Part shown: positions 6,185-42,675 of the stretch, in pieces
How positions within the stretch are numbered: position 1 is the stretch's first letter
Layout of the letters: every line of letters begins with the position of its first letter
Translations under genes and position numbers: made by a program
Origin: Phoronis australis
Lineage: Eukaryota; Animalia; Phoronida
Direction: 5' to 3'
DNA: 64,000 nucleotides
NCBI GenBank assembly: GCA_002633005.1
Contig: NMRA01000262.1
Span: 363,735-427,734 of the forward strand
The notes under the pieces: model-generated
Database searches by the model: none
What the model saw: only the letters and a program-made list of their open reading frames with translations
What the model was told of the DNA's origin: nothing

Positions 6185-6299
6185 TATCATCGGTGTTGTT
6201 CAGATGGTGAACAAGTTGAACGGAACGTTTACAAAGAGCGATGAGGAGTCATTTGAAACATTTGCAGTATATTGTGGCCTGGCACTGCATCATGCAAAG
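6185..6299 (+). CDS. PDE10A: PDE10A-like phosphodiesterase, internal exon (end of GAF-B domain)
   Basis: tttttcAG acceptor and AAG|GTAAGT donor; translates [38 protein letters not shown], matching the GAF-B NK...F...DE motif region of PDE10. A probable upstream donor GTAAGT sits at position 2. Confidence 0.92.
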
Positions 6300-7336
6300 G
6301 TAAGTTAATTTCAACACCTTCTGCCGTTAGGTGTCAGGTAAAACAACTGAACTTTTGTTGTCAAGTGGAACTACTTGGTCTAAATTGATACAAACTAGGT
6401 TGTTTTTGGGTGGCATTCTCCTTTAAGACTACTTTTATGATGGCCTAAAATCAGAACTTAAAGCCTAACTTCAAGGGAATTTTGTTATTTAATATATATT
6501 GAGTTAACCAGACAGTCCTAGCACAGCCTTAGCAAAATAAGAAAGCGTGAGTTTAATCACTAAAACGTAGGCCCGTCAAATGATTAGTGAAGTTGTCGTT
6601 TCTTGCCATATAGCGTCACCACGAGAACCCAGCACATTAAACAGCAAAAGGCTGATAACAGTTGCATTGAATAGAGGTCTGAATAGAAAACATTGAGTAT
6701 CTGTGTTATTCGCAGCTGTTTAAATTAAAATTAGGCAATTGTTTTGGTGACGTAAAAAGCATTTGCCAATAACCCAAACAGCTTATTACATTTGGCACTT
6801 AAAAGCGATGCTCTTAACATAGTCAGAACCAAGTTTACTGGTGTTACTGTTCAAGATGGGCTTTAATGTCATTCAAAGGATGTAGCTAATTACTACTTGC
6901 AAATTTTAAGACCTTAAAAATAAGCTTATTTGAATTTTCACCTTGAAACTGTAGACAAACTTACCAACTAAGATTTTATCAGTGAGAATCTTTTCCAGTT
7001 GTCTTCTTAGTTGGCTATTACTAAACATCATGCTGGGTAAGATTCTTGCATTAGAGTTCAAGTTTCACCGAATCAGATTTGCGGATTTTTTCACTGCCTA
7101 TGGTTCAATCCTGCATGTTTGAGCCATCAGGATTAGACGCAAATTTTCAAGATTGATAAAATCTAAAACATTTTTGCAAATTCTGACTTTGTGTGTTTGG
7201 CAGAGGCTGTTCAATAGATTCAAGAAACTCTTGAGAAAAACTAAATGTAGCCGTGAAAGGCAGCGGAATGGATTGATTGGTTGCTCTAAGACTTCATATT
7301 GGGAATGGATTGATTGGTTGCACTAAGACTTCATAT

Positions 7337-7616
7337 TGCTTTAATTCATACCCATTTGTAGTTATATGACAAAATCAGGAGATCGGAGCAAAAGTACAAG
7401 GTAGCTTGCTTTAATTCATACCCATTTGTAGTTATATGACAAAATCAGGAGATCAGAGCAAAAGTACAAGGTAGCTTGCTTTAATTCATACCCATTTGTA
7501 GTTATATGACAAAATCAGGAGATCAGAGCAAAAGTACAAGGTAGCTTGCTTTAATTCATACCCATTTGTAGTTATATGACAAAATCAGGAGATCGGAGCA
7601 AAAGTACAAGGTAGCT
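7337..7616 (+). repeat. 4 x 70-bp tandem repeat spanning a PDE intron/exon boundary
   Basis: gttatatgac recurs at 7361, 7431, 7501, 7571; preceded by a 2 x 37-bp duplication at 7265-7338. Confidence 0.95.
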
Positions 7617-7711
7617 CTAGAAGTGCTCTCTTATCACAGTCAATGCAGTGAGCAAGAAGTGGAAAGATTAAAAGACAGGGTAATCAGTGCACCTGTTGAA
7701 GATTTCACCAG
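7572..7711 (+). CDS. PDE10A: PDE10A-like exon (GAF-B to catalytic linker helix)
   Basis: Phase 0 to phase 2; LYDKIRRSEQKYKVALEVLSYHSQCSEQEVERLKDRVISAPVEDFT; LSYHS motif; donor AG|GTAAGG. The acceptor is repeated four times (see findings). Confidence 0.88.
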
Positions 7712-7768
7712 GTAAGGTCACCTGTGCATACAGAGTAATTGGAGAAAATACTGCTTCTTCCTGACAAC

Positions 7769-8088
7769 TTGTAGTGACTGGTCATTCTAGCTTTGATGAT
7801 GAATTCTGGTTGTTGTAGTGACTGGTCATTCTAGCTTTGATGATGAATTCTGGTTGTTGTAGTGACTGGTCATTCTAGCTTTGATGATGAATTCTGGTTG
7901 TTGTAGTGACTGGTCATTCTAGCTTCTTTGATGATGAATTCTGGTTGTTGTAGTGACTGGTTATTCTAGCTTCTTTGATGATGAATTCTGGTTGTTGTAG
8001 TGACTGGTTATTCTAGCTTCTTTGATGATGAATTCTGGTTGTTGTAGTGACTGGTCATTCTAGCTTCTTTGATGATGATTTCTGGTTG
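7769..8088. repeat. 44/47-bp minisatellite, ~7 copies
   Basis: unit ttgtagtgactggtcattctagc(ttc)tttgatgatgaattctggttg. Confidence 0.95.
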
Positions 8089-9121
8089 TGTTCAGCCCTC
8101 ATCATGGGGAATTTTGAGTTATTTTGTTTGACTATTATTGGCGTGTACTATGCAACAAAATTTGTAAAGTTTTTGTATGTTTAAGAAACAGACATGAGCT
8201 CTACCATACTTAAAATGCTGATTCACTTGTTGGCAATTTTTGATGTCAAAAACATTTTGGTAGCACCTGGTCGCCATTTTAGTTTTTGTCAGAGTTTATC
8301 TGAGGTGCATTCCATAGATGCAAGAACCTCATAAAAAGTCAAGACCTGATGCACGACCACTTAAAATCACCCATAACTCATAAGTGAAACGCAGGTGCTC
8401 CATGAGTTTGCTGTTCCTTACCAGCATACGCTAGCAAAATGTCATCCCTTGTCCACTGATTATTGTCAAAATGGCCAGACAGATTTTTGATGGACCTTGA
8501 CAGAGAGGTTTTATGACTGTGAGAAGCACCAGCCCAGTAAAGTTTGATGGCAAAATTACTGTACTTAAGTAACATGAAACGTAATGTCACTCAGACTTTT
8601 GTGCAGTGTTTGAATAAATGTGCTGGCCCACCGGTCCAATGTGTCTGACCCAGCTGCCAAGTTGCTGGCCCTGCTTTTAGCTTCCTATCTACGTTTTTGT
8701 CCATCTTTCCTGTACACTAAATGTGCATGTGCGTATGAACCCCATTTTTTTCAGTAACTCTAGGTGAGGAGTTGTTGGTATGAACACCATGTAAGCTGTG
8801 GTTATTAAAATAAAAGTCTTTAACTGGATTTAACCAATATATTTTTGCAAAACACATTTCTCACTGCACAGAACTCTAGGCTAAAGTTCTATCAATAAAC
8901 AATTTAGTGAATGGGGGGATCACTCATATATATTGCTCACAAGGTTCAAACTCGTTAGCATTGAATTAATTGGTTATGAAATCACATCCACATATATAAA
9001 AGGGCCTATATGTGAAAGTTTGCTGGCCCAGCCACAAATCCACTGGCCTCGGATCACCGGGTATTTCGAATGCTGCTTATTTGTAAAAATGATCTTCATA
9101 AATGTATGTTTCCCATTCCAG

Positions 9122-9217
9122 GTACGATTTTTCACCATGGGCAATTGACAATGATGAGAAGCCACTGTATGTGATAAAGATGTTCAAGGCGCTCTTTGAT
9201 GCCAGTACTAAGTATAG
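9122..9217 (+). CDS. PDE10A: PDE10A-like exon (N-terminal part of catalytic domain)
   Basis: ttccAG acceptor, AG|GTAGGA donor, 96 nt, phase 2-2; (R)YDFSPWAIDNDEKPLYVIKMFKALFDASTKY(R). Confidence 0.85.
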
Positions 9218-9910
9218 GTAGGAGATAGTTGATAGTGATTGTCAAGTGTAATACAAGCTTAGTGTGACACATGTCTGCTGCAGGAATCTTTGGATTCTGC
9301 AGTGCAGTTCTTCCTGTTCAAAATAAAGCTGCATATCGCTCTGTTTAGCTGGATAAAAACTAAAATTGAATTAGGCTTTTTAGTATAGTAAAATTAATCT
9401 TGTAATGTCACCTAGCATGATGTGATTCAGCTTGCATTCCCGACACAAAGCATCAGTTGTGTCAACGACTCAAGCAATGGCTCAGAGTTTAGGGTCGGCC
9501 AACCCTCAAGTTTGAAAGTTGTGCATGTACCCATTGCCTGTGACTCGTGCTGGTAATAGAAACTATACGAATTCTATCATGCTGACGAGTGTCATGAGAT
9601 TGTTTTAATAGGAGTATGTCAGGTCTAATTAGATTTTTGTTTTTGCCAGCTTAAAAGAGGGTGAAATGCCACTAAAAGTCTTTGAAGTGATATTATTGCG
9701 CTGAAGTAAAATTTGTGCATGGAATCATAAGAATATCACCTGTTTGATTAAGAATTAGCCAATATTACTTTCCTTGTATTTATTGATTTGATAAGTATTT
9801 TTTGCAATTTAAAAAAATCTATAGTGAGTTTTTACTATTTTGTGGCTGTCCAAATGCCAAAAGAGCTAGACACACACAGTGATATTTCCATATTTTATAT
9901 GTCCATTAAG

Positions 9911-10061
9911 GTATGATCAAGAGACTCTGGTCAAGTTCACGCTGACAATACGCAAGAACTACCGCACCGTGCCATATCACAATTGGGCTCATGCCTTCTC
10001 AGTGGCACATGCTATGTTCACAGTCATCAGGACCACCAAGAATGACTTCACACCTTTAGAG
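9911..10061 (+). CDS. PDE10A: PDE10A-like exon (YHN motif)
   Basis: (R)YDQETLVKFTLTIRKNYRTVPYHNWAHAFSVAHAMFTVIRTTKNDFTPLE; class I PDE YHNxxH motif; GAG|GTAGGA donor. Confidence 0.95.
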
Positions 10062-10606
10062 GTAGGAGTGAACACCAAGCTGCAGAGTTCATGTTACTTT
10101 TTAAATATAGACAAAATCTCATTTTGTGCAAGGTTTAAGATAAATGTCATGATCATTTAGGGTGTTTAAAATTTAAATAAACATCCACTTCTCAGCCTGG
10201 CGAGATGGGTGAAGATTGTGTAAACTTTTCTCAAAATTATGACAGAAATAGACTACAAAATCAGGTGATCAATTTTGTTTAAAAGTATTGACGATTTCAA
10301 TAAAAAATGATATTTAGTTGTTAAGTCTTTTAAAACATCAGAGTTTGGTCAATATGTCTTGCAAATATTGACCCTGTTAGATGGTTCAAGTGCCCAACTA
10401 CAAGTTAGAACAGATTAAATTTTTAGTACAATTTGTCTTTTCCTTAAAATAATTCTAACTAAAATGAGACTTGTTAATGTTCATAAAAGACTGGTCTGTT
10501 TTAAAGTGGCGCTAAACTCATGCATTTTGTCAAAAAACAACGAAATTTTGATGTGATCTCTGGAAAGCCCTGCATGTGGTGACTTCTTCAGACTTTAAGC
10601 TATAGT

Positions 10607-11781
10607 CAGGTCACACACGACCTGCAGTTCCTTCATAACATTTTAGGTCACACACGACCTGCAGTTCCTTCATAACATTTCAGGTCACACACGACCTGCA
10701 GTTCCTTCATAACAATTCAGGTCACACACGACCTGCAGTTCCTTCATAACATTTCAGGTCACACACGACCTGCAGTTCCTTCATAACATTTCAGGTCACA
10801 CACGACCTGCAGTTCCTTCATAACATTTCAGGTCACACACGACCTGCAGTTCCTTCATAACATTTCAGGTCACACACAACCTGCAGTTCCTTCATAACAT
10901 TTCAGGTCACACACGACCTGCAGATCCTTCATAACATTTCAAGTCACACACGACATGCAGTTCCTTCATAACATTTCAGGTCACACATGACCTGCAGATC
11001 CTTCATAACATTTCAGGTCACACACGACCTGCAGATCCTTCATAACATTTGAAGTCACACACGACCTGCAGTCCCTTCATAACATTTCAGGTCACACACG
11101 ACCTGCAGATCCTTCATAACATTTCAGGTCACACACGACCTGCAGTTCCTTCATAACATTTCAGGTCACACACGACCTGCAGTTTCTTCATAACATTTCA
11201 GGTCACACACGACATGCGGTTCCTTCCTTTCATTTCAGGTCACACACGACCTGCAATTCTTTCATAACATTTCAGGTCACACACGACCTGCAGTTCCTTC
11301 ATAACATTTCAGGTCACACACGACCTTCCGGTTCCTTCATAACATTTCAGGTCACACACGACCTGCAGTTCCTTCATAACATTTCAGGTCACACACGACC
11401 TGCAGTTCCTTCATAACATTTTCAGGTCACACACGACTTGCAGTTCCTTTATAACATTTCAGGTCACGCACGACATGCGGTTCCTTTAACATTTCAGGTC
11501 ACATACGACATGCGATTCCTTCATAACATTTCAGGTCACATACGACCTGCGGTTCCTTCATTACATTTCAGGTCACTCACGGCCTGCGGTTCTTTCATAA
11601 CATTTCAGGTCACAGACGACCTGCGGTTCCTTCATAACATTTCAGGTCACACACAACCTGCGGTTCCTTCATAACATTTCAAGTCTCACACGAAGTGCAG
11701 TTCCTTCATAACATTTCAGGTCACACACAACCTGCGGTTCCTTCATAACATTTCAGGTCACACACCACCTGCAGTTCCTTC
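10607..11781. repeat. 37-bp minisatellite, ~32 copies
   Basis: unit catttcaggtcacacacgacctgcagttccttcataa; no spacers. Confidence 0.97.
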
Positions 11782-12549
11782 CAATCCCACAAATCACACC
11801 TATTTTGACCAAGGAACGTTAACTTTACATCTATGTCATGATACTATGTGATTGAAATCAAAACTGTTTTTGACAGCTGTGTATTGTTGTTTTTAATACT
11901 TGTGATGTCTATCACTGATTCAATATGATCTTCGATCAGTGTCACAATGAATAATGGGCCTATGCATTTGGTAAGGGCAATCTCAGCTAGTCATGTTTTT
12001 GTTATTATAGCAGTCAAGGAACTATAGTGCCCGCTGAACGCTACTCTAATTTATTGTTCCCGTTTGTCAATTTACTGGAGAAACAAAAAGTCAAGATGTG
12101 GGCATTAAATGAAATGCAGCAAAATTGGGTTATGTGAGATTTCAGTTTGAACATGGAAATTCAACCTAACCTGAAAATACGGTATTGTGGACCAAGTGCA
12201 TCAATCCTACGCAAAATCAACGTCGTAATTGTTTGAGGTTTTCTGTTCTAATCTAGTACGCTTTGCCTTATACATGGATGACAGTTGTTTCATCCTGGTT
12301 TGTACTTGATGTCCCAGACATTAAAGTTATCAGATGAGTATGAACTCATAGTCTCCCTTAAAATCTGAAGTTTTGAGTTGTCTCAGACTAGCTCAAATCT
12401 AATGGCCATCATGTAAAAACATGATCACATAATATAAAAAATAGAAGCTTATTCTAAATTTGGAATACTAATCTCAAAAATACTTTCAAATTCAATTTTC
12501 AAGATTCCATGTCCTGAAATTCATTTTACTTTCTTTTGCCTTACGCTAG

Positions 12550-12756
12550 AGCCTGGTGTTGTTCGTTGCCTGTCTCTGTCATGACCTGGATCACCGTGGC
12601 AAGACCAACGCGTTCATGGTAAAGAGTGCCTCCCCTCTGGCCGCCATTTACTCTACATCGACTATGGAGCACCATCATTTCAACCAAACTGTCTCAATAC
12701 TACAGCAGGATGGCCACAATGTGTTCCGATACTTGTCACCTCAAGAGTACAAGCAG
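12550..12756 (+). CDS. PDE10A: PDE10A-like exon (HD metal-binding motif)
   Basis: [69 protein letters not shown]; PDEase signature HDxDHxG; 207 nt, phase 0-0. Confidence 0.96.
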
Positions 12757-14247
12757 GTCAGTGGATGGTTTTCTGTCTGTGATACTGCAGGGTAGCCAGG
12801 GGTGTGTTCCACAGTGCGAAACACTCAACTGGTCGCTTGCAGCCAAAATATTTGGCTTGTGTGAATTTCTCCATTTTTCTGGGCTATGCTAGTAAGGTTG
12901 TGAGCTTTCTCTCAACACACTTGCCTTTCATCTTGTCAAGCTTTCAATTAGAATCTTATTTCTAAGGAATGCACCTTGGTCTTCCTCTCTTGTGGCCATT
13001 AGAGCATTCTCATCACTATTGTACTTTTTCATGAATAAACTTCTTTTACCACAGGTTGTATTTACATTCCCACACATTGCAATTCTTTTCTTAAAAATAT
13101 ATTTTTGCAATGTACGAATTTCAGTTCAAACTCTTGAACGAGCAAGAGTTAGGAAATGTGCTTTTAACTTAAAACTGTTGAAATGTATCAATACTGTGTA
13201 ACAATACTGTGTAACAATACTGTGTATGTATATGTATCAATACTGTGTATCTGTATGTATCAATACTGTGTATCTATATGTATCAGTACTGTGTATCTAT
13301 AGTACATGAGGAAAAATGTGCTCTGCAGAATGCTTAATATGACTTTTGAGAAAAACATCATTTTCAGATTTATTCAAACTGACTGTGGAAAAAATAATAA
13401 TTCTTAATCCTATTTTTCAAAGGCTCCCTGCTTAGAAATTTCATCATTGTATAATTTGCTTACTGTTATTCTGTACAAGACAAGCCAACAGCAAAGAAAA
13501 TAAACTTTTCTGTAATGTTATTTTTTGATGATTAATGTGTCCAAAGGGAAATTAACTTGCTTGCCATACTGTGTTCCAAATTAAAGACTACTGTATTCAA
13601 ACAAAAATAATGACCAACATTGTCTTTTTTCGTTTTTCAAATGCTCACTGTATTGCCAAAATGTTAAAAGTTTCATACTAATATATAGTTTTCAAATTAT
13701 CAATAATTGTGTTTGGACACTCTCGTTGCAAATTTTACTAAACTTTTGATAAAATGAAAGTTTAACTGTTCTGCAACATTGTTTTCTAATTTGAAGAAAC
13801 TTCATATTCTCTTCTATTGTAAAAATCACGCCTGCTCCAAACTAGAAGAAACTAAATGTTTGCAACAGCAAATCAAACTGAGGGTCATATAGTTGAAGTT
13901 CCTGGACCAGTTCATATACTTTTGGTTGCAGTGTTCGCAGAGTTGGAAATGTTAAATAACTTTGTAAACTTTCCTTCTCTTCACCCCATTGTTTGTATGC
14001 CTTTAAGATAGCGAAATCATTTACAAAATTTTCAAGTAAAGTAAAGATTTTATTTTTACCTTATGCATGCTTTGACAAGAGAAAACTGGACAGTGCTCCT
14101 AAAATCATAAAAATATGTTGGTTAAATTCAGAATTGGTCAATTCAGTTTTGTTTCTTACTATGAAGAATGAGCTTGTTTGCAAAGTCTCTGGTGGCATTT
14201 TTATTGTCCATCTTTCCAGAGAGAATATTATTTCACGACTATATAGC

Positions 14248-14918
14248 TATTCTCTAACACTGTATTGTACCACAATTCTCCTACACTGTGCTGTACCACT
14301 ATTCTCCTACACTGTGCTGTACCACTATTCTCCTACACTGTGCTGTACCACTATTCTCCTACACTGTATTCTCCTACACTGTGTTGTACCACTGTTTTCC
14401 TACATTGTGCTGTACCACAATTCTCCTACACTGTGTTGTACCACTGTTTTCCTACATTGTGCTGTACCACTATTCTCCTACACTGTGCTGTACCACTATT
14501 CTCTAACACTGTGCTGTACCACTATTCTCCTACACTGTATTCTCCTACACTGTATTCTCCTACACTGTGTTGTACCACTATTCTCTAACACTGTGCTGTA
14601 CCACTATTCTCTAACACTGTGCTGTACCACTATTCTCCTACACTGTATTCTCCTACACTGTGTTGTACCACTATTGTCTAACACTGTGCTGTACCACTAT
14701 TCTCTAACACTGTGCTGTACCACTATTCTCCTACACTGTATTCTACACTGTATTCTCCTACACTGTGTTGTACCACTATTCTCTAACACTGTGCTGTACC
14801 ACTATTCTCTAACACTGTGCTGTACCACTATTCTCCTACACTGTATTCTCCTACACTGTATTCTCCTACACTGTGTTGTACCACTATTCTCTTACGCTGT
14901 CTTGTACCATGACTATTC
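14248..14918. repeat. compound ~15/29-bp minisatellite
   Basis: units ctacactgtgctgtaccactattctc and ctacactgtattctc. Confidence 0.95.
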
Positions 14919-15170
14919 TAGTAATAATAAACAATCTATTCACACCAACCCCTGGTCTCCTTTTCATCTCATGCGATGCATGATTTTTATCTGGTCCAGG
15001 TGTCATGAATGAAATAGTAAGTGTAAGCATTATAATTACAGAGAGTGTACACTACCATAATTCAACTCCCCATTTCTACAGGAGTTTTCATTGGTAGTCC
15101 ATGGATATTCCTTATTGAAATTTAAAATATGTTTACTCTGAAAAATGAGAATGCTTTTGTTTATTTTCAG

Positions 15171-15292
15171 GCACTTGGAAAAATCAAAGAGTGTATCTTA
15201 GCAACAGACCTGGCCTTATTCTTTGGGAACAGAGCAAAACTTAAGGAACTTGTTGATCAAAAGAAATTTGACCCTACAATACTGAATCACAG
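15171..15292 (+). CDS. PDE10A: PDE10A-like exon (ILATD motif)
   Basis: ALGKIKECILATDLALFFGNRAKLKELVDQKKFDPTILNH(R); tttcAG acceptor, AG|GTAAAA donor; ends in phase 2. Confidence 0.94.
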
Positions 15293-15754
15293 GTAAAAAA
15301 ACAGCTGCAATTTAAAGTGTTAAGACATGCAATTAACCCACTTACTATCGCACTCATCTGATTTAAAGCCCAAGATGTATAAATTGAAAATGTCAAATGT
15401 CAGGATGTAGAGAAATTTCCCTGTTGAAATGAAGTACTCATACAAACTGAAAGCAACTTGCTTATTTTCACACAAAATGACTGAAAACAAGATTTAGTGT
15501 TACTGCCAATTTCATAGCTGATCCCAAGTTATGCCAATGTCCACCAAACTTTGATGAGATATAGTTTGATCAATTTTTTTGAATGGAAACAAGAGACTTA
15601 TCAGAATATTTGGTCTGTAGAATTTGGGACATTGGACATTCAGTACATAATTGTATACAAGTTGCTGACTAAGTTGTCTTTGGGAGGACATTATGTTCAA
15701 GTTGCTGACTTAGTTCTAGTTTTGAATCTGTTCTTTTATCATTTTTGCGTGTAG

Positions 15755-15866
15755 AAGGTTAGTGGAGGCCATATTGATGACTGGATGTGACCTGTGTGCA
15801 AGTACCAAACCCTGGGACATCCAATGCAATACTGTTAGCGTTATATTTGAGGAATTTTACCTCCAG
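15755..15866 (+). CDS. PDE10A: PDE10A-like catalytic exon, mutually exclusive variant A
   Basis: 112 nt, phase 2-0; (R)RLVEAILMTGCDLCASTKPWDIQCNTVSVIFEEFYLQ; gtgtAG acceptor, CAG|GTAGAG donor. Confidence 0.93.
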
Positions 15867-17277
15867 GTAGAGATCAATTGCCATAGATTACTGTCAATGC
15901 ATGAGTCACTGTAGTGAAGAGTAGAGTTGTAGAAACAGTTTTCTACTGCATTGGAGGTGGTTAGTCTCACCTCCATGTACAATAATACCTGCTATAGGTT
16001 GGCAAGGCAATGTATGGGTGTTGTGAGTGGTGTGAGCTGTAGTCTATTTCTCTGAAGCCTGTAGTGATTTCTATTCTGAATATTAGAAGAAAACATGGGT
16101 TTATAGACTCTTTAAATTGCTTTTTTGAATGATTGGTCTATTACATCACTTCATTGTCAAAATAATTACATAATGAGACAGTGAGAGACATTCACTCAAG
16201 CAACTAAGGATGACAAAGAAGGACAATCAGGACAAGAAAAATTGTAATGTATTTTATAGTATTATGATGGTTGTTCTTTTTATTGATATAGTTATTATAA
16301 TGTTGAATTTAGATGGTTTACAATCATGGCACACAACTAAGAGTTAAGAGCAACATTGTACGAAACAAGACAAGGCATGCAATAGTGTCAGTGCAAATAA
16401 TAAATATATTAATAGATAATAAAACTATAAAGGATATTTTCATCGTGTTTGGTAGGTTTATTCCAAAATACACGAATACACAAAACAGTAATAATAAGTA
16501 AATAATTAAAGTAACAAATAAGATAAGGACACACTACAGACACATGGTAATAGGAGCCTATCAAAGAACTTCCCTTCATTGCTCTGTGATGCTTTGTAGT
16601 GTCAAAAAGGTGTGCTCCATTGCACGTTTCAAATGTCTGACACATACCATCATTATTTTTCTTTTGCCATAGTCGATAAAAAACGAATGAAATTTTTGTC
16701 ATCACCGACGATTATTATCACTGAGAAGTAGTTACTTGTGCACACTTTAAAACCAGTAATTTCTTTTTGTCTTCATTGTTTTATACTTTACAGTGACCTC
16801 AACACCATTACTCTGAAACTTGTTTCTTGTTTGTAAATGTTATCTTAGAACTCCATTTCTGTGTATTTCTATTAATGACTCATATTTTACTACCAATTAT
16901 CAGATCAGAAAAGCATCGGCTATGAATGATTGCATTTTGTTGCAAGGTTAGATAATTGTTTGGAATTCAAAACCAACAAAGAACTGGGAAAATGACATTG
17001 CTTTCATGCTTCACAATATTTAAATTTAATTTTTTTTTCAAAATTATTCACCAGGTTCATACGTACACTCGCTATTTTGTTTCATGATTTTCCTTTCTCA
17101 CTCTCAGTTGCTGCCTGTTTTCACAACCTATTTGGCTCACACTTTTCCACTCTACTTTAACTGGTAGAAGCCTTTCCCCGCTCTCCACCTGGCAATCTTG
17201 CTCAGAGTGAAAAGCTACACTTGGAGCAGATCTGCTCCTATTTTTTCAGTGTATGTCAGGGTCTTATACCATTATTG

Positions 17278-19348
17278 CTAGTGCATGCTTTGATCAGTTC
17301 TTTACATCCTGGGTCCAGATCTGTTCATAATTGCTAGTGCATCATGGGCTTAGATGAACTCATTTACAGTACAAGCTAAAAGAAAGCAGACACCATTTCC
17401 ACATCATGGCTATCAATTCCGCCTGCATTTTTTTCCCGCTGAACTCGAACTGGAAATAACACACCACGATGCATAATAACAGCTGTAATCTGTCATCATA
17501 ACTCTAATGACATCATACCGGTCCATTACTTTGAACAACCAAGTACTTATGAGGCAACAACTCAACTACCAAAGTACATAATGGCACACTGCCCAATTAC
17601 AAGATTTTTGCCCAGTGACAATCATAAAAGTTTAACTATACCTTTCAATCACGCAGAGTTTGGGTATTTTCTGTTAGCTGTTAGCGGACTGAGACCAATG
17701 CCTACGTACAGCTGAATTATGAAAAAAAAAATTTTACCGTAATCAGTTTGCAAAATACTTGCATGGGATAAATATTTCTGCACGATTAGAGCAAAATTGT
17801 TCTCATGAACATTCTGATTCTGTCGCGTATTTTGTAAGCAAGACCATGTACCTTAAATGATGAATTTGCGAAGCCTCAAAGTACTGCACAGGGCATCGGA
17901 ATATGTTAAATTGTGCCCTTTAGAAAAAGATAACAATGTTACTAGGTGTTGTAATACCATAACAAATAACAAAAAACAAAACATCAAATACAATCCTTTC
18001 TTCATGTGCTCAAAATTATCTTCATGAGACCAGGGACGGAAAGACATCAAATAATTAATAAAGCAACCGAAAGAATGAACTGTAGACCAATGAAAGCGGA
18101 AGGCGGAGATTTTTGTGGAAATTGTACATAAGAGTGTGGGCCTAAATCAGCGCTCTGGTGTTGTGTCAATATCATGAACAACATGAAATCAGTAGCACAG
18201 TACATGTACATGAATCAGTTTTAATTCGATGTAACTTGAGACAGAAACGCGGACTTTTGCATGTATAAAGTAGCAATGAGTGACCTAATTACAGTGTAAC
18301 TGTCGCTTGCATTGGGATTCATCTTTTAAAGTTAACTTGAGGTTTGTTCACGATTGATTAGATCAGAAATATAGGAACAACTAGCTATTCCACTTGAATT
18401 AAACATGACATGTCTACTCATACATGACATGTCTACTCATACATGACATGTCTACTCATACATGACATGTCTACTCATACATGACATGTGTACACTTATA
18501 CATGACATGTCTATTCATACATGACATGTCTACTCATACAGTTAATTCCGCTAAACATGACATTTCTACTCATACAGTGCAGTTTCGCTAAATTATGTCA
18601 ACTGAAATAGCATGGAATTTTATCTGCTCAGCAGGCCTGACTTGGAATACCTTTGTTTTTTCCGTTTACTTTTGGCTTGAACTGTATTAACTAGTGCATG
18701 CTGGGATCAGATCTGTTCACATTACTAAGAGTGCATATTGTAGATTCATCACGGCTTGGAATTTTCCTCTTTTAAGAGGATTACCTCTTTTTTGATTTCC
18801 ACTTGTTTCCAGTTTCCCCTTTTTTTGTTTTTTTTTTCATTTTGACTTGATTCACTCAAAAATGTTTATTTCAGTTAATTTTTACATCACAAAAATATCT
18901 CCATCGCACTATCCTATTTATTTGTGGAACGATACATCACCTGTCCTCGTTTTTGTCATTGGTCATTCCAAGCCCTGATTCATAATAGCTATAGTGCATG
19001 TTCTTGGGATCATATCTGTCGTGTAGCAGGATCAGATCTTTTCACATATCTGACTAGTGCATGATGGGATCTAGGTTGCATCCTATAGATACAAGGCTGT
19101 AGTCACGTGATAGTGTAATCATGTGCTTCCCTTTTAATGGATGGCAACATTTTGATGGTGAGGAAGTACATGATAACAATTCTCTCACAAGAAACTTAAT
19201 TGGTCTCAGGAACGCAATCCAGATCTGTTCACATAACTAGGGGATGATGAGGTCATATCTGCTCATATAACTAGTGCATGATGAAGTCATATCTGTTCAT
19301 ATAACTAGTGCATGATGAGATCAGACCTCTTCATATAGCTAGTGCATG
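17278..19348 (+). promoter_or_regulatory. cluster of Rbfox-type TGCATG intronic splicing elements in a local ~34-bp repeat
   Basis: TGCATG at 17282, 17760, 18258, 18695, 18995, 19058, 19275, 19309, 19343 (also 15898 and 19505 just after each alternative exon). Seven sit in the context TAGTGCATG, most followed by a GATCAGATCTGTTCA-like tract. Confidence 0.7.
18403..18575. repeat. 19-bp minisatellite
   Basis: unit catgacatgtctactcata, ~7 copies plus a partial copy. Confidence 0.9.
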
Positions 19349-19388
19349 CTTGTCGTTGTTGCTATCGTCGTAACTGTTGTCATTCTAG

Positions 19389-19500
19389 AGAGATGTTGAT
19401 GTACCACAGTATGACTGCTGCTGATCTTTGCTCAATGTATAAACCATGGAACCTCCAGGTCAAGTTAGTTAACATCATTATGGAAGAGTTCTGGCAACAG
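19389..19500 (+). CDS. PDE10A: PDE10A-like catalytic exon, mutually exclusive variant B
   Basis: 112 nt, phase 2-0; (R)EMLMYHSMTAADLCSMYKPWNLQVKLVNIIMEEFWQQ; ttctAG acceptor, CAG|GTAATG donor; aligns to variant A without gaps. Confidence 0.88.
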
Positions 19501-20718
19501 GTAATGCATGTTGTAGCAACACAATATGGTAGTTATATAACCATTAAAGCCATTGGAAATTAATGTTTTTTTCTAAATGTTGTTATGTGTAGCTTATTGT
19601 GAGATAGCCTGTAGCCTGGCTGCTACATGAAGTAGTGACATTTTGTGAGCTTATTACATGCCATCTGTTTATCATGTTGCCTAATGATGGAACATAAAAT
19701 CATTCATTTGAATTTGTTCACAATGTCTTCATGATGACATCCATTTTTATTTTCTGATAACTTTCAACATAAACAAGCAGATTCTCCTGGAACAGTACCC
19801 AAACTTTTGCTTCTTATTTTCTTCCCAGTAAAATCAGGGACTTCAACTTTTGTAGACTGTCAATTTTTAGTATTAAGCTTATGCTGATGAATGTTTTTCA
19901 ATCCCTGAGCGTTTTTGGCGGCATGCCAGCAGTTTTCCCAAATGTTCCTTGCATTAGTCAAGTGAAATAATCTATGTTTGTAAAGATGGCAAAATTTGAC
20001 AAGGTTAAGCTGGTCCATCCTACACAGCGATACTGGAATCTTGCTGTATTTACCCAGGATGTTATAAACATCCGTCGGAACATTTGCTCTCTCCTTTTCG
20101 TGCCATTGGAATTACACTTATTTGTTGTTGTCTGATTCTTTTCAAGTTTTATTCGTAATTCCAATGCTAATAAAGTATTACTGCTGTGTTATAGGCTGCA
20201 TCTCCGATGTGAGAAATTTTAATAAACTGGACAGTCAAATGCCCATGTATACGTGATGTGATATTCTTTGCCTTACTGACATCAATGAGAGACACAAAAA
20301 TGTGCATGATTTCCAAAAAAGAGGTCACAGGCGTTTTTATCTCTGGGACAAATGAGAGTTCTATTGCCCAACTGAGACTAAACCTTACAAATATGAATTC
20401 AAGCACTTTTACAGAAGGTGTTGGAAATGTTCCCCATCGGCATCTAAGCACAATTTAATTCGCACAGCTCTATGGAATACATTAGTCAAGAATGAAATTG
20501 ACAAACTACTGAAAAAACTCTTATAGGCACATTGAGTGCTACATGAAGTTTTGAGCCCCAAGCTCAAGCAGAAAAAATTATTACGAAATGTTTGTGGCCA
20601 AGATGTCTAAGGAGATTCACCTTGTATTCAAACTTTTGTATGTTTTTTCCACAAATATAAGCAGTGCACTATGTTAGTGTGAGTCACAAATACTTATGTT
20701 CACTTACAACCATTTCAG

Positions 20719-20799
20719 GGTGATGAGGAGAAGACACAAGGAATCCAACCTATAGCTATGATGGACAGAGCCAAGGCACACCAGCTTCCTCAGAGCCAG
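20719..20799 (+). CDS. PDE10A: PDE10A-like exon (GD...MMDR, invariant Gln)
   Basis: GDEEKTQGIQPIAMMDRAKAHQLPQSQ; 81 nt, phase 0-0. Confidence 0.95.
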
Positions 20800-21049
20800 G
20801 TACTGTTTTAACAAGCACTTCCTGCAATACCACAGTGCTCTTTTGATTCTGCAGTATTTACCCACAAACCTGTGCATTTGCTGGGCACTTCCCTCACAGC
20901 TGTGCACTGCTGCTGTGTTAATAACTATAGTTTGCCATTTGTCATCATTCTTACGCCAATAAAATTTTAAGTGAGTTGCAATACAAACTCAAGTCCCTGG
21001 GATCCACACACATAGTTACACTAGAACAACTTGCACTAGTGCAACTTAC

Positions 21050-21183
21050 CATGGGCGGCGCAGCACTGAAAAAAGTGGGGACTATCAGCCCCCCTGTGGT
21101 ACACCGCCCATAGACCATGGGTGCCAGAGCACTGAAAAAAGTGGGACTATAGCCCCCAGCCCCCCTATGGTGCGCCGCCCATG
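21050..21183. mobile_element. tiny CA...TG MITE with 5-bp TSD (hAT5-like)
   Basis: TIR catgggcggcgca / tgcgccgcccatg; cttac on both flanks. Confidence 0.8.
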
Positions 21184-21398
21184 CTTACCCCTCTTTTAAG
21201 TGGAGCTTCCACATATATCCAATAACTGGGCCAGGTGCCTTCATCTATTCTCACTCAAGTCAAGGTAAAAATAATTCAAATTAAGTTAGTGTGTAGGTAG
21301 TTAATAGAGAAGATATTCTGGACACGTCCTAGTAAGTGCACACCACCAGGACAAGTAATGCCATGGTCAAGGTCAGTGTTGCTGGTTTTGTATTCCAG

Positions 21399-21487
21399 GT
21401 TGGTTTCATCCTTGGAATCTGCCTACCTTGTTATGAGCTGATGGCCGAAGTATTACCTGGTTCTGAACCTATGGCAGAAGGCGCAAG
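21399..21487 (+). CDS. PDE10A: PDE10A-like exon (clamp Phe helix)
   Basis: VGFILGICLPCYELMAEVLPGSEPMAEGA; ttccAG acceptor, AG|GTATAT donor. Confidence 0.93.
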
Positions 21488-21808
21488 GTATATATGACAG
21501 TTAAAGTGCATAAAGTAACTCTTGATTTAAATCACTTGCAGTAATTATTAGACTCAAACTTTTCCTTGATCAAAATTTATTTCTGGACTGATGTATTACT
21601 TCATTATAACTTGAGACCCCCATGGCTTGACCAGTTGACTTGTCATGGCATGTAATCATGCCCCGTGCTCTTGGTCTCAAATAGCACCTGTCATTTTTCT
21701 AAACCATTTCACACATTTAATTCTGCAGCTAACTTACTTTCGTAGGTTTGAAATTTGACACCTGCGTGAATTCAATTTGTGTATCGAGGTCTGCCATGTT
21801 GTTTGCAG

Positions 21809-21881
21809 TGCTAATTTAAAGAAATGGAAAGAACTTGCTGAATCACAACCGGAGAAAGAGGAAGACTCACAGACCAGCTGA
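21809..21881 (+). CDS. PDE10A: PDE10A-like terminal coding exon
   Basis: tttgcAG acceptor; (S)ANLKKWKELAESQPEKEEDSQTS-stop (TGA at 21879-21881); NxxxW motif of the PDE C-terminal helix. Confidence 0.9.
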
Positions 21882-24860
21882 ATTGTGGGATATCACATTT
21901 TACAGCAATTGCTTTGATACCAGTCATTTACTTCTGCACATTTAATTTCACATTGTGAAACGTATGTCAGTTGTTGACAATAATTGTCATATACCATATT
22001 TGCAATACGATGAAGGGAGCACCTTGCTACTTTCTGCATAATATTACTTTTAGACTGTGACATGCAGGTTAATAGTCAGGTGTGGAACAAGAGGGGGCCT
22101 ACAGGGTTCAGAACTCCCCATCTGAGCTTTTGCTGTGTTGTAATAGAAGAATATAATTTGGCAGTCTCTTGTGAAACACTTGCAGTAACTGAAGGAAACT
22201 GTGTGCCATTGACAATAGATGGCGCTGGCTTCACAATGAGAATTTTGAAAGGTATACTAAGAAAAAAGGGACAAAAAACAAAATCTCCACTTTTCACCCC
22301 AAAACCACCACTTGTTTGCCGATGCACAACTAAAACCAACATGAGATTTTGAAACCAAATTTCCTACCAATTCCAAAACTGGTTCAAAAGTACTGTCAAC
22401 CAACTATTTCTTTTGCAAATCTGGCTACCTAAAATCGCAGCCAAAATCTCGTTACCCAGCCGTGCAAAATTGCAACAGGGGCCGCCATCTTGAAGAAGAG
22501 TGCAGCTACAGCCAAGCAAGTGATGTTTTTCATTTTCAACATGTTCACAAATACAAACAAACCACATTCACCGAGTCTACATGCAATGCCTACCTAAAGA
22601 AATGCCCCCAAGCCTGGCCTACCATTAGGTTTTAATATTACTAGGTCCATGAATTAAATTTTGTTTGGTAACATTCAGTAGCAAAATACGGGTATCGATG
22701 GTGTATTTTTATAGGGAAAATAAGAGATAGAAAATGAAAATTACATCTTATAAAATTTACAGAAAACGATAACAAACTATTGTGGAAATCTTGTTTATTG
22801 GAGATCCTATAGGTCTGATAAATCGAAGCACTAGGTTAAAAGTTTGCCAGCGTCCAAAACTATCACAGACTACAGCATGTATTTTAATATCTAATTTACA
22901 TTTTAATGCGATTGTGTGTGTGGGTGTGTGTGTGTTTGATTTCTTTTAAAGACTAGTACAGCTCCTGGAAATCGTTTTCCTATTATATCTACAATTAAGA
23001 CCAAGCCCAGAGGAATGAGAGACAATGCTCCATTGTATGCCATTAAAGCCAGGATTTCAACCTGGGTCTCCTAAATGGTGTCCACAGATTACTGACTTGC
23101 AACATTGTTGATTGTTAAGAAGAATCATTATTTTCCAACAACTATTTAAGAGTTGCAAAGTTTCATAAAGTGTTATGTATATCAGTATTACAAAAGTGCT
23201 GTTTAAAGTGGAAAATTCTTAATTTGCAAAAATTCTTGTGTTCATATGTTGATTGGTATCTTTTAAGAATTCCGAGATAGTCTTTGCTGACGCCAGTACC
23301 GCACAGTGGACTTTTGTGTCGTCCTGTAAAGAGGCTGTCTTCGGAAAGCATGTGTCTGAACTGTGAACAAAGCATGTACATGTAATAATATAATTTGCTC
23401 ACTGTATGTTCAAAATATCTCCCCTGTTTGTGTGAACAAATTTATTTAAATGATTTAAAACTGATGTTCTTCAGATTTCCTTTACAATTTTGTCAAATCT
23501 TTTTGAAACTAAATCTAATGCAATGAGTAACAGACAATTTGCTCTTTTATAACAAAAATGCACATAGAAACTTAATTTTAATGAGTGAATGCAATTGCTT
23601 AGTTTCCCTGTATTCTTTTAGCATGAGTTTTATCCAATAGGGGATAGAAAATTTTGATTTTTTCCTACAATTATGTCCCGCATCAACACTTGATAAGTGA
23701 ACGTTTTAAGTGAAGTGGTATTAGCTAGTACTGTTATTTTCACTTATTCTGATTGTCTATCAAAATGTGCATACATGTGATTTCTTAACTTCAAGTGTAG
23801 AGCATTGCATTTTTACTGTGGTGATGTCTTTGTATTGCTTGTTGTGAATATTGTCAAACAATTTTATTTTAATGTATTATAGCAATTTGATGTCCATGAA
23901 AAGCACTAATCTACATCAAAGACATTATTAACATTATTCAGTGCTAGTCTGACTGTGAATAATACTAATTTATTTTTTAAAGTTTAAATAACAAACGTGG
24001 GTGCATTTAGGTGAGTATGAAAAACTGTTATTGCTTAGAAGCCAGGATGAGTATCCCTAAAAATGTGATAGTCAAGTTTTTGGGGAAACATCGTGCTTTT
24101 ACCCAGTCCATGATTGATTAGTCCAAAATTAAACTCTACAAAACTTCTTACTTTGCGATAACATAAACTTGTACCAAGTTAAATTTTGTATTTTTGTTCT
24201 TTTTGTCTAGATATAGAAACTGGCTGTAGAGGTCGCTGATGTCTACTACTTTGCGCCATTACATGTAAGCTTGTACATTTTCCCGTGGCACCTTTACAAT
24301 TGATCTTAATTGTATTTTTTCTAAAAGATAATCTGGGTTAGTTCATCTTTACTTGGTAATCTTCCACAATTATTGATTTGTCAGTATCCATACGGGCTAT
24401 GTGACCCACAAAATCAAAAATGAAATCTGTTGTTATTTATATTTTGTAGTTTACTTGTTACTGTTTTATTTAGTTATGGTTATTTTCACTTGTTCATTTT
24501 GTGTCTTACGTTTCTCTTGTTACTTCATTATTATGTCTTATATGCTGTTTAAAACTCAAAAATGTCTCTAACATTTTTTCATCTACGGTTGTGAAATTAA
24601 CTGTTATTGGTGCAAATGAAGAGAAACTAGCAGCTTTGAACTTCCATTATCTTTTGTGTAACCTAATCAAGAGCCTATAAACGATGTTTATCTTCAGTAT
24701 TTTCCTCGAGTCTCTTTATCTGTTTTTAATAACCTCACCTAGGCAGCAGTTTCATGGGCACACGGTACTTTTTTAGCCTATAGCAATTTGTGCTCCAAAA
24801 GGTAAAGTGTACATATTTCATTGTCAATTAAAATGTAAAAGAAAGAACCTGTTTTTGTAT
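21882..24860 (+). other. putative long 3' UTR of the PDE gene
   Basis: AT-rich and repeat-poor sequence after the stop codon; ATTAAA at 24827-24832 followed by a T/G-rich tract. The end point is a guess. Confidence 0.3.
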
Positions 24861-30423: not shown

Positions 30424-30490
30424 GTATACCTTCAAGTCGAATTATCTGTACGATGCCATAGATTTCAGGATCTTTTGAACAAAATCAATT

Positions 30491-30786
30491 GGCATCGTTT
30501 ATGGTCATAACTACGACGGTACCTGATCGTCTTCGAACCTCTGACTTACGTTCTTGGCAAATGCTTTCGTAATTGTTCTTACGGCGATCCAAGAATTTCT
30601 CCTCTAACACCTCTTAATCATTACCTCAAGTTCCGAAAACCAACAAAATAGAACCGAGGTCCTATTCCATTATTCCACGCACAATTATTCAGGCAGACTG
30701 CCTGCTTTGAACACTCTAATTTTTTCAAAATAAACGTTCCGGCCACCCGAGACACTCACTTAAGAGCACCAAGGGAAAACCGGGAG
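30491..30786 (-). pseudogene. 18S rRNA pseudogene fragment (V4 and downstream conserved region)
   Basis: Reverse complement of conserved 18S motifs: atcgtttatggtc..actacgacggt, gcaaatgctttcg, ccaagaatttc..ctct, aaaccaacaaaatagaacc..gtcctattccattattcca, ctttgaacactctaattttttc. It has internal deletions relative to a functional 18S. Confidence 0.92.
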
Positions 30787-33710
30787 TAGACAGGGATCCC
30801 TGGGCTTTTTCGGGCATGATAAGGTAACCAATTTTCTTTGGTGCCACAGTGCTCTATTGGTATCCTCATGCTTGGAAATGGTCGTCCGGTGGATGTGGTC
30901 AGGGTAGCCAAGAGAATGACTCTCAAAAATTGAGCTAGATCAATTTTTCTGGTAACCACTTAAAACTGTCTACAATACCTACTGCGTAATCTACTGTATT
31001 AAAATTGGCCAGTGCCACACAATTTCAGTGGTGGGGAGTAACAGCTAGACGGTTATAAACAAGGTAAAAAATTGAGCAAGATCAATCCAAGAGGTAACCG
31101 CATGAAACCAGTTGCAAAATATTCACCGTGAGCCCAGGTATCACGAATAAACACATCTAGTGGTGGTTAGCCTCACCAGACAAGCCCAAAAAAACCCGGG
31201 TTGAGCTAGATTAACCCACCAGGTAACCGCTTGAAAACAATTACGCTATGTTCAGCATCAGTGCTCATGGCACAACAATTAGATGCCCGACAATTTCAGT
31301 GGTGGAGTGCCCCTGTCAGACGATTATCAAATAGGGTTAAAATTGAGCTAGATCAACCCAAGAGAGTTGCAAAATAATCCCCATAGGCCCAGGTATTCGT
31401 AGTCCTATTTTACCAATCTAAACTATTTCCCTTTGTTTTCGGACAAACTTTACCCAAATCCACTTCTTCGTTTGATGCAACTGCTAAAACGAGGAATCAT
31501 ATATAAACAAACCGTACTTTTTGCTGTCGTCTGCGTTATGTATGCGCGACAGCTACCTTCATTTCACACAATGATTAATGAAAAACTTAGCAAAACTGCT
31601 CAGTTTTTGGCACTCTACATCTTTCTTATAAACTACGCCCACTGAGAACTCCAGGAGTACGTCAAGACCAATGACGTCAGTGGCTACATCAACATTTTTC
31701 CAACAATGCTTTATGTATTCTTTGCCCTGATCTACGCCAACTGGGGAACATTGCTTTACCAAAAGTTGACATTCGCAGAACCAATACTACGTGAAGTGCT
31801 GTAAAATGGCGCGTTCTCAGTGCAACGTACGAGGAGGAACTTCTGTAGATCAGCTGCTGACCTCTCTTTAGATCAGTCCGTTAACCGGGATGCAGCATCG
31901 AGCATGATAGGGATAGTGGCTTTCCGCAACTCTGAGAATGCAATGCGTCGATTTTCCCTCTCTATGACACAAAGGGCAACGGCGGTAACTGAGCTTAAAA
32001 CCATGGCATGACATGAAATCAGGTGGAATGCAAAGGGTCAGTGCAATCCTTCAAGAATCAAAAAGATAACGAACAAATGGCAACACTCAGTGTGAAAACT
32101 GACAATTTCTGCAATCCGTTTGCGGACGATGCTCCACTTGTTCTTGTCAACATCGCAGTTGGCCAAGCAGCATCCCAAGCAACGTGACTATCTCATCAAC
32201 GTGCTTATCCGAGGTCATGATGCGAGAGAAAAATTCCAACACGAACGGGAAAACCACACCAATAGGTTTCTGCGACCAGTGAAGTGTACAGCTGTCCAAA
32301 ATTTCGCTGCTGATAACAGGAGGAAGAAAACCAAGGCATCGGCCTCACAGAGACACGAGACAACCGCAGAGAGCCTCAGTGACTTCTTGTTCATACGCGT
32401 AATTGCAGTTGTAGCAGAGAGCACAAACCTCGACCTCCGAAAACTTCTCTCACATCTCAAATCCGAAAAATCTGCTTTGTTTAAAAAATTTGAATTGTTC
32501 CAGACAGAACCTATAACAGGGCTACGGGAAGGTTTTTGATAGCGGATTTCTTCTACATTCAGTTATCTCACAGACGAGAATAGGTGCAACCTACAGATCA
32601 GTTGCACGGTCGATGTTATCAGTGGTCTGTTCGAGACAAGAATGTTGTAAATTCAATTAAGGACAGTACACGGAAACAACTCGGCGAACTTAATTCCACG
32701 TATGCCATGACAAGGCCTGATCAAACTAGGCCCGCGACACAGTTCACAAACACTTCTTAGCAACACTGCGTTCAAGAATGAACTGGTATATGTTTCGTGG
32801 GAAAACCTTGTTTCCCACGGTGGCGACTGCTACCAGTTCTTTCCTAACGATAACCAGCATATCATGGACACAAAACCTGACCACGTTCAAGGCGACCAGG
32901 AGGAAGTGGACACGTTGATTGCGTTCCATGTCGCAAATATCCTTATCGGCTACGTGATAGTGGGGGCTTCAGATACAGATGTCTTAGTAATCTTGCTTGG
33001 TGCACTTGGACTGCAGCGGCGAGAAATATGATCCACGGCCAACGTTGTCATGGACTGTGGGATGAGAACAGTAGGAGATTATTAACATGGCAAACGCTCT
33101 TGAAGAGCTCAAATACGGACTTGCTAGAGCAATGTCTGGATACCACGCCTTCACTGGATGTGACATTTCAGTTTGACGAGAATTGAATTCAATTAGCTGT
33201 TGTTATACGTCTGCCATGTAAATGAAGTCTAAATAACGTGTCATGATTGCCTCCTTTAAATTAAAAATGTTTCTATTATGAATTAGTCTTATACGTCATT
33301 CCTTATTTTTCCGGAAAGGCAAAGTCAATCCCTTGCTGAAAGTGATGAAAAGCTCGCCAATATGTTCACTACTTTTGGAGATGTGCACGACAGCATTCGA
33401 TATCGGTTTGTCACTGGAGTCGTGTATCACATGTAAGCAAAAAGCAAGGTCAAAGATGTTAACAAGGATCTGTTCGTCAAACTTATGGACATGATTGGCA
33501 AAGTTGTTGAGGTATGTAGTGGTAATCCGTAAACAATATAAGTATTCGATCTGATAATATATTGCCATCATCAAAGTCACCTATGCTTATGTTTTTTTAC
33601 TTTTCTTTCAGGAGAACCTACCTGCAAATGTAAAACGAATTGGCTGCGTGTTGCTCCCATTTGTCTTCGTAGCCTACAGATGAAGATTCGCCGAACTCAG
33701 TACGTCACAG

Positions 33711-42588: not shown

Positions 42589-42675
42589 GTCTCCGTGGCG
42601 CAACGGATAGCGCGCTGGACTTCTAGTGGTTTCCTGGTAATTCAGAGGTTGTGGGTTCGAATCCCACCGGAGACG
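42589..42675 (+). tRNA. trnR-TCT: tRNA-Arg(TCT) with 14-nt intron (42626-42639)
   Basis: Acceptor stem GTCTCCG/CGGAGAC, A box TGGCGCAACGG, anticodon stem CTGGA/TTCAG with TCT at 42622-42624, intron after position 37, B box GGTTCGAATCC, T6 Pol III terminator at 42680-42685. Confidence 0.95.

Follow-up and report, generated by a model that had tools for sequence, protein, structure and literature searches.

Phosphodiesterase (PDE) isoform diversity is described as lying mainly at the N- and C-termini, with the catalytic pocket fixed for each gene, and the locus analysed here raises the question of whether a single PDE gene can exchange part of the pocket itself. The locus lies in a window of 64,000 nucleotides (nt) from the phoronid Phoronis australis (assembly GCA_002633005.1, contig NMRA01000262.1), in which a PDE10-like gene carries two versions, A and B, of one exon of its catalytic domain. 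A and B are tandem-duplicated homologous alternative exons of which only one at a time fits the reading frame, a departure from the pattern just described. Judging from the residues that differ, the choice between them probably yields two enzymes unequal in nucleotide affinity, turnover or inhibitor sensitivity, both of which are predicted to keep handling cyclic GMP (cGMP).

Two versions of one pocket exon

The pair, its two flanking exons (U and D) and a further exon between A and B are, in window coordinates:

15171..15292 (+), upstream exon U, encoding the ILATD motif; placed by frame and splice-site check and by RNA junction reads
15755..15866 (+), alternative exon A, likely the ancestral type; PDE10A2 residues 663-699, with Ala677, Ser678, Gln685, Phe693 and Tyr697
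16058..16243 (+), probable poison exon; donor 16243 from reads, acceptor placed near 16058-16065 from read depth
19389..19500 (+), alternative exon B, the spiralian derived type, with Ser677, Met678, Tyr679, Gln685, Met693 and Trp697
20719..20799 (+), downstream exon D, ending in the invariant Gln (726); single copy in the window, duplicated in several relatives

Exons A and B are each 112 nt long, flanked by AG and GT, of phase 2-0 and free of stops, and 15 of their 37 residues and 61 of their 112 nt are identical without a gap; our recomputation returned exactly what the first-pass annotation had given for length, phase and residue identity. Equal length, equal phase and intact splice sites, as expected of homologous tandem exons, are all present. 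The joins U-A-D and U-B-D both leave the reading frame open. As had also been claimed, including both exons (U-A-B-D) brings in a TGA within B, which begins 33 nt into the exon, and skipping both (U-D) shifts the frame. Under the 50-nt rule for nonsense-mediated decay, a transcript with both exons is predicted to be degraded, since its stop precedes the B/D junction by 76 nt. Scanning all six frames of the window for the motif revealed no third copy of the A/B exon, and three in-register queries found no second copy of D in 12701-24000 (best off-target ungapped score 19, versus 82-98 for D itself). RNA pairing between docking and selector sites of the Dscam type was also sought; among the 25 of 49 inverted repeats listed none was outstanding, and no convincing element emerged. 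Minisatellites occupy 10606-11781, 14247-14909, 18403-18576 and 19223-19348, the last of which stops 40 nt short of the B acceptor.

Three stranded RNA runs with the same species label, from one study, were mapped to 15100-20830 using 18-19% of each run, and splice joints were listed from a threshold of 3 reads from 2 starts. Seven joints passed, five of which are GT-AG joints of the PDE10 gene; in each of these five the first mate maps to the minus strand. With reads given for runs 1/2/3, these are U-to-A (5/1/0), U-to-B (2/3/0), B-to-D (3/8/3, 14 in total), the double-inclusion joint A-to-B (3/0/0, one of three runs) and a joint from 16243 into B at 19389 (4/1/0, two of three runs). The U-to-D joint stayed below the listing threshold in every run. 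No sequence differences between reads and window were listed in the exons, and a 2015 contig run, X4, had zero depth over the exons. Interspersed repeats in the introns (18750-18980, 20020-20320 and 21010-21190) draw many reads from other loci.

In these runs B is the productive form, joined to U as well as to D, and A is recognised as an exon by its splicing to U; among relatives, gene models of both forms exist for 16 of 31 groups. The route 15292>19389>20719 suggested earlier was therefore seen on both sides, and the inclusion of B in spliced reads, on which the first-pass annotation had let its case depend, is observed (5 U-to-B and 14 B-to-D reads); for the other route, 15292>15755 was seen, but the continuation from A to 20719 stayed below threshold. 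Likewise, the statement that exactly one exon must be used stands for a full protein but not for splicing, where the A-to-B joint has 3 reads and the 16243-to-B joint 5. The two exons are thus at times included together, in a product with a premature stop; mutual exclusivity holds for the protein and not strictly at splicing, likely with decay as the policing step. Some of the A-to-B and 16243-to-B reads may also be nuclear intermediates.

Whichever acceptor compatible with the read depth is used, the 16243 exon introduces in-frame stops; its upstream joint was below the listing threshold. When 24 AG acceptors were tried, all but one gave stops in both contexts, and the sole stop-free choice, 16188 when it follows A, is preceded by a poor pyrimidine tract and conflicts with the depth, which makes 16058-16243 a probable poison exon.

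The host gene and its relatives

The remaining exons of the gene are:

6185..6299 (+), constitutive exon encoding the end of GAF-B; the most 5' PDE exon of the window
7572..7711 (+), constitutive exon, linker from GAF-B to the catalytic domain
9122..9217 (+), constitutive exon, start of the catalytic domain
9911..10061 (+), constitutive exon, YHN motif
12550..12756 (+), constitutive exon, HD metal-binding motif; Pfam PDEase_I, closest solved structure PDE10A
21399..21487 (+), constitutive exon, clamp Phe (729)
21809..21881 (+), last coding exon, to the stop codon

All of these except the HD exon were placed by tblastn with AG/GT flanks and an open frame, and joined through B the ten exons from 6185 to 21881 form one open frame. 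Members of the PDE10 family have two tandem GAF domains, bind cyclic AMP at GAF-B and hydrolyse both cyclic AMP and cGMP. No PDE exon was found 5' of 6185 within the window, which contains the end of GAF-B only; the Tubulanus ortholog has two GAF stretches. At 7336-7616 there are four 70-nt tandem copies (99% alike), each spanning the acceptor of the linker exon and the first 39 bases of its coding sequence, and only the last copy runs on into that exon; they reflect a recent duplication or an assembly effect.

Judged by its catalytic domain, the gene is a class I cyclic nucleotide PDE of the PDE10 family, as had been proposed: the HD exon, the names of its relatives and the tree all point to PDE10. 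The HD exon matches PF00233 (PDEase_I) with 90 bits and, among solved structures, PDE10A with 92 bits (PDE2 69, PDE5 62); the protein of a relative gives 324 bits with PDE10A and 243 with a PDE5/6 chimera. The invariant class I motifs (YHN, HD, EHH, Thr, Asp, Glu, Gln), a residue set given in Table 2 of PMC12346295, are present in the exon chain. A tree of the constitutive exons places the window among 'pde-5' orthologs, apart from a PDE11-like row and with a long-branch warning at the root, and nematode PDE-5 is the PDE10 ortholog according to the same source. Database names of the relatives are 'probable pde-5' or 'PDE10'. In the constitutive exons, identity reaches 72-77% with sequences of nemertean, brachiopod, annelid and Mya origin and 57-62% with those of arthropods; nemerteans (75-77%), Lingula and Owenia are the closest, as would be expected of a host that is most likely a lophotrochozoan. 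The Tyr693/Gly725 selectivity pocket of vertebrate PDE10A is not matched, since in the window residue 725 is Ser and residue 693 is Phe or Met; this pocket is a vertebrate feature, and its lack leaves the PDE10 orthology standing.

The conservation of the pair in relatives, which the first-pass annotation had made a test of its proposal, is borne out by database gene models. A search with the B peptide matched all eight candidate proteins at 71-84% identity, including annelid, oyster and nemertean proteins and further sets. Both versions occur in the isoform set of one gene in C. virginica, C. angulata, M. gigas, S. echinata and Tubulanus, as well as among the isoforms of Lineus (14 B, 1 A), Haliotis rufescens (8 B, 3 A), Mytilus edulis (10 B, 1 A) and Patella caerulea (1 B, 2 A); 15 O. 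edulis and 4 S. cucullata proteins are listed with B only. A Bulinus gene model has A then B in tandem, the order of the window. In 16 of 31 groups (the O. edulis and S. cucullata sets stood outside this test) there are isoform pairs of equal length that are identical outside the segment and differ at 14-22 positions within residues 663-699, namely in molluscs, nemerteans and a rotifer, together with a parallel pair in echinoderms and hemichordates.

Conservation is class-wise across phyla. The A exons of relatives are closer to window A than to window B in 8 of 8 cases and their B exons closer to window B in 7 of 8; window A shares 29 of 37 residues with Lineus A and 27 of 37 with the A exons of Tubulanus and Lingula (the Lingula A/B pair being drawn from two contigs and not from one shown gene). 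Both copies therefore appear to be conserved under selection. A chance or pseudo-exon origin of the pair is ruled out by the orthology of the segments across phyla and by reads spliced at the exact boundaries.

Babylonia and Nucella (P0122/P0128, P0127/P0130) each have two separate pde-5-like proteins whose representatives are of B type. Bdelloid rotifers (P0363, P0364, P0162/P0334) have two tandem copies, both with Met693, and the ancestral A type may there have been replaced or have converged; Rotaria P0162, labelled B in the segment tree, is the upstream rotifer copy and possibly misassigned. Two versions of the exon also exist in seven echinoderm and hemichordate genera; in six of six ambulacrarian pairs (P0115/P0242, P0123/P0267, P0270/P0273, P0283/P0284, P0135/P0361, P0117/P0332) Trp682 faces Phe and Thr688 faces Val. 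The sets from Branchiostoma (17 proteins), Penaeus (15), Ornithodoros (7), Periplaneta (6), Nematostella (3), Owenia (2) and Watersipora (2) showed just one version each, absence from gene models being weak evidence, and the single version of amphioxus, arthropods and cnidarians is A-like. A profile of the derived-type segment matched 115 of 364 candidates, 58 of them new; among these 58, five named arthropod rows are of A type and two tapeworm rows had been missed by the residue pattern.

In a tree of the segment (57 rows, 37 columns), a single starred branch (97/89) unites 18 B rows, window B among them, with an unassigned Solemya row, and window A falls among the A-type rows. Since the A type is shared by arthropods, amphioxus, the first ambulacrarian type and Trichoplax, A is likely the ancestral exon, and we infer that B arose before the spiralian radiation. 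The second ambulacrarian exon joins B at 86/67 only. Approximately unbiased (AU) tests on the same 37 columns rejected neither an independent ambulacrarian duplication (p 0.43) nor an independent spiralian one (p 0.21), and neither a grouping of the vertebrate exon with the ambulacrarian second exon (p 0.40) nor one with both derived types (p 0.42), so that one and two origins, as well as vertebrate retention of a derived exon, all stay compatible with the data.

The next exon, equivalent to D, is itself present in two versions in oysters, Lineus, Paralvinella, Pinctada, Lingula and Periplaneta (rows P0003, P0013/P0024, P0086/P0197, P0093, P0102/P0362 and P0194). In molluscs, annelids and Lingula one of these versions ends in Glu at the otherwise invariant Gln726, and many mollusc models show the Glu form only; the window has a single copy of the Gln type.

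Pocket residues and rival readings

PMC12571622 lists 11 active-site residues of PDE10A, among them Val678, Thr685, Ala689, Ile692 and Tyr693, in a PDE10A2 numbering that fits the human sequence. Five of the 11 (678, 685, 689, 692 and 693) fall within the A/B exon, in agreement with the earlier view that the segment lies in the pocket. In nine species with A and B paired, Asp674, Leu675, Cys676, Lys680-Pro-Trp682, Gln685, Val689, Ile692, Glu695 and Phe696 are kept in both classes, and positions 666, 678-679, 688, 693 and 697 are class-specific. At 693, A has Phe (6) or Tyr (3) and B always Met; at 697, A has Tyr in 8 of 9 and B Trp in 9 of 9; at 688, A has Thr in 7 of 9 and B Leu or Val. Residue 679 is mostly small in A and Tyr, Phe or His in B, and 678 is Ser (6) or Met (3) in A and Met in all nine B exons.

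Gln685, which is present in all nine A and all nine B exons, aligns with Gln775 of PDE5, a residue implicated together with Gln817 in PDE5 specificity (PMC10367598). Against solved structures, both peptides are closest to the cGMP-specific PDE5/6, and no PDE4 entry occurs among the 60 matches listed for them. The two forms seem to share the hydrogen-bond anchor, and it is in the hydrophobic lining that they differ, a combination that favours tuning over a full switch between cyclic AMP (cAMP) and cGMP. In the mechanism we prefer, the choice of A or B would reset pocket residues of one PDE10 enzyme, transcripts with both exons or with the poison exon would be removed by nonsense-mediated decay, and decay would enforce the exclusivity and might limit enzyme level; the productive A form would be made in tissues or stages outside those sampled.

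Several observations weigh against this mechanism. The A-to-D joint remained below the listing threshold in all three runs, 8 of the 13 listed reads at joints into B start from A or from the 16243 exon, and counts are low, coming from 18-19% of the runs of one study with tissues unspecified. The isoform pairs of relatives are known from database gene models, Patella B has more in common with window A (25) than with window B (22), and Met693 in Potamilus A and in both rotifer copies means that residue 693 is not strictly tied to class. The weights given to the competing readings below are themselves inferred.

A true substrate switch, with one form selective for cGMP and the other preferring cAMP, a change in selectivity of at least tenfold and one gene doing the work of two PDE families, we consider unlikely. 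It would draw on the five listed active-site residues within the exon, on an A/B difference kept across phyla, on the exchange of Gln726 for Glu in the next exon of molluscs and annelids, and on Met693, which is found in B in 9 of 9 paired species and corresponds by spacing (Ile336, Met337, Phe340) to PDE4D Met337, a residue that lines the Q2 inhibitor pocket according to PMC11820465. On the other side stand the retention of Gln685 in both classes and the closeness of both peptides to PDE5/6. Position 677 does not act as a class switch either, being Ala in 9 of 9 A exons and Ser in five but Ala in four B exons. We take 677 and 685 to be equivalent to PDE4D Asn321 and Tyr329, and B has neither of these PDE4 residues. 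The Ala/Ser contrast at 677 pointed out by the first-pass annotation therefore does not hold across species, and of its likening of B to PDE4 only Met693 survives, as B combines this residue with Ser or Ala677 and Gln685; its cAMP-versus-cGMP reading is correspondingly weakened.

A broader idea, which we put forward tentatively and would not expect to hold, is that a combinatorial splicing switch in the PDE10 pocket goes back to the last common ancestor of bilaterians, or to that of Spiralia if a parallel event took place in Ambulacraria; in it one pair would reset 678-697 and a second, in molluscs and annelids, would swap the purine-reading Gln, supposedly invariant, for Glu, giving forms of different cAMP/cGMP selectivity where vertebrates use separate PDE genes.

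That the pockets are alike, and that the swap instead alters packing of helices 13-14, regulation by the GAF domains, stability or partner binding, is improbable. The class-specific positions 666, 679, 688 and 697 do lie outside the listed active-site residues, and homologous mutually exclusive exons are reportedly enriched in surface residues near functional sites (PMC8373072, citing another study), but the active-site positions 678 and 693 also differ by class. Least probable of all is that only B makes protein in Phoronis australis and that A mainly routes transcripts to decay through A+B inclusion: the three A-to-B reads, the 14 B-to-D reads with A-to-D below threshold, and the B majority among models of relatives (14 of 15 in Lineus, 10 of 11 in Mytilus edulis) would agree with it, but the similarity of window A to the A exons of Lineus, Tubulanus and Lingula argues for selection on an A protein, and full-length A isoforms are modelled in many relatives.

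The wider window and known systems

Elsewhere in the window there are an isolated fragment of eukaryotic small-subunit rRNA at 30427-30946 (-; model positions 621-1113), a tRNA match at 42589-42675 (+) and a broken retrotransposon remnant at about 56000-57400 (-), with a reverse transcriptase RNase H-like piece at 56074-56310.

Enzyme pairs that differ naturally by 14-22 pocket-exon residues are ready-made experiments on cAMP/cGMP preference and inhibitor selectivity. The glutamine-switch model explains preference only partly, and the Gln-to-Glu next exon of relatives bears directly on it. That the invertebrate PDE10 pocket is PDE5-like at 685 also matters for the reading of PDE10 inhibitors in invertebrates.

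Familiar cases of mutually exclusive exons that retune kinetics or substrate choice are PKM1/PKM2, ketohexokinase A/C and CYP4F3A/B. These are vertebrate metabolic enzymes with measured differences, whereas the PDE10 pair is known from sequence and reads. A human catalogue of substitutions derived from tandem exon duplication comprises 236 events (PMC8373072), in which, as in the window, equal-length homologous exons are swapped, very old and near a functional site; no PDE occurs in its main text or in one supplementary file, and the window pair differs in being invertebrate and in carrying the metal-ligand Asp together with substrate-pocket residues. In oyster alternative oxidase, exon 10 is duplicated and the derived copy alters residues near functional sites of a spiralian enzyme, as here, but that exon is terminal and its A/B use is tied to stress (PMC5589949), whereas the present pair is internal, enforced by the reading frame and conserved across phyla.

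Among PDEs, vertebrate PDE10A (PDB 2oun, 5i2r and others) is the closest solved match of the window HD exon, and the full-length relatives of the window gene resemble PDE10A and nematode PDE-5 in carrying GAF domains and PDEase_I. Human PDE10A differs from both window exons at 685 (Thr instead of Gln) and at 693 (Tyr instead of Phe or Met). Variation among its splice forms is mainly N- and C-terminal (PMC12571622), whereas the window gene varies in a pocket exon. For C. elegans pde-5 a single isoform is listed, unlike the window gene, and the substrate specificity of PDE-5 is itself unmeasured (PMC12346295). The swap is already implicit in public gene models. We found no paper describing it and, with subscription papers and the lists of Drosophila and human exon surveys outside the search, no published description of mutually exclusive or duplicated exons in PDE10 or any other PDE, in line with the first-pass remark that no described exon of this sort in the PDE10 catalytic core was known. 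The A/B pair is a real, ancient and apparently undescribed case of a known type of splicing in an unusual place, with a predicted effect on the enzyme.

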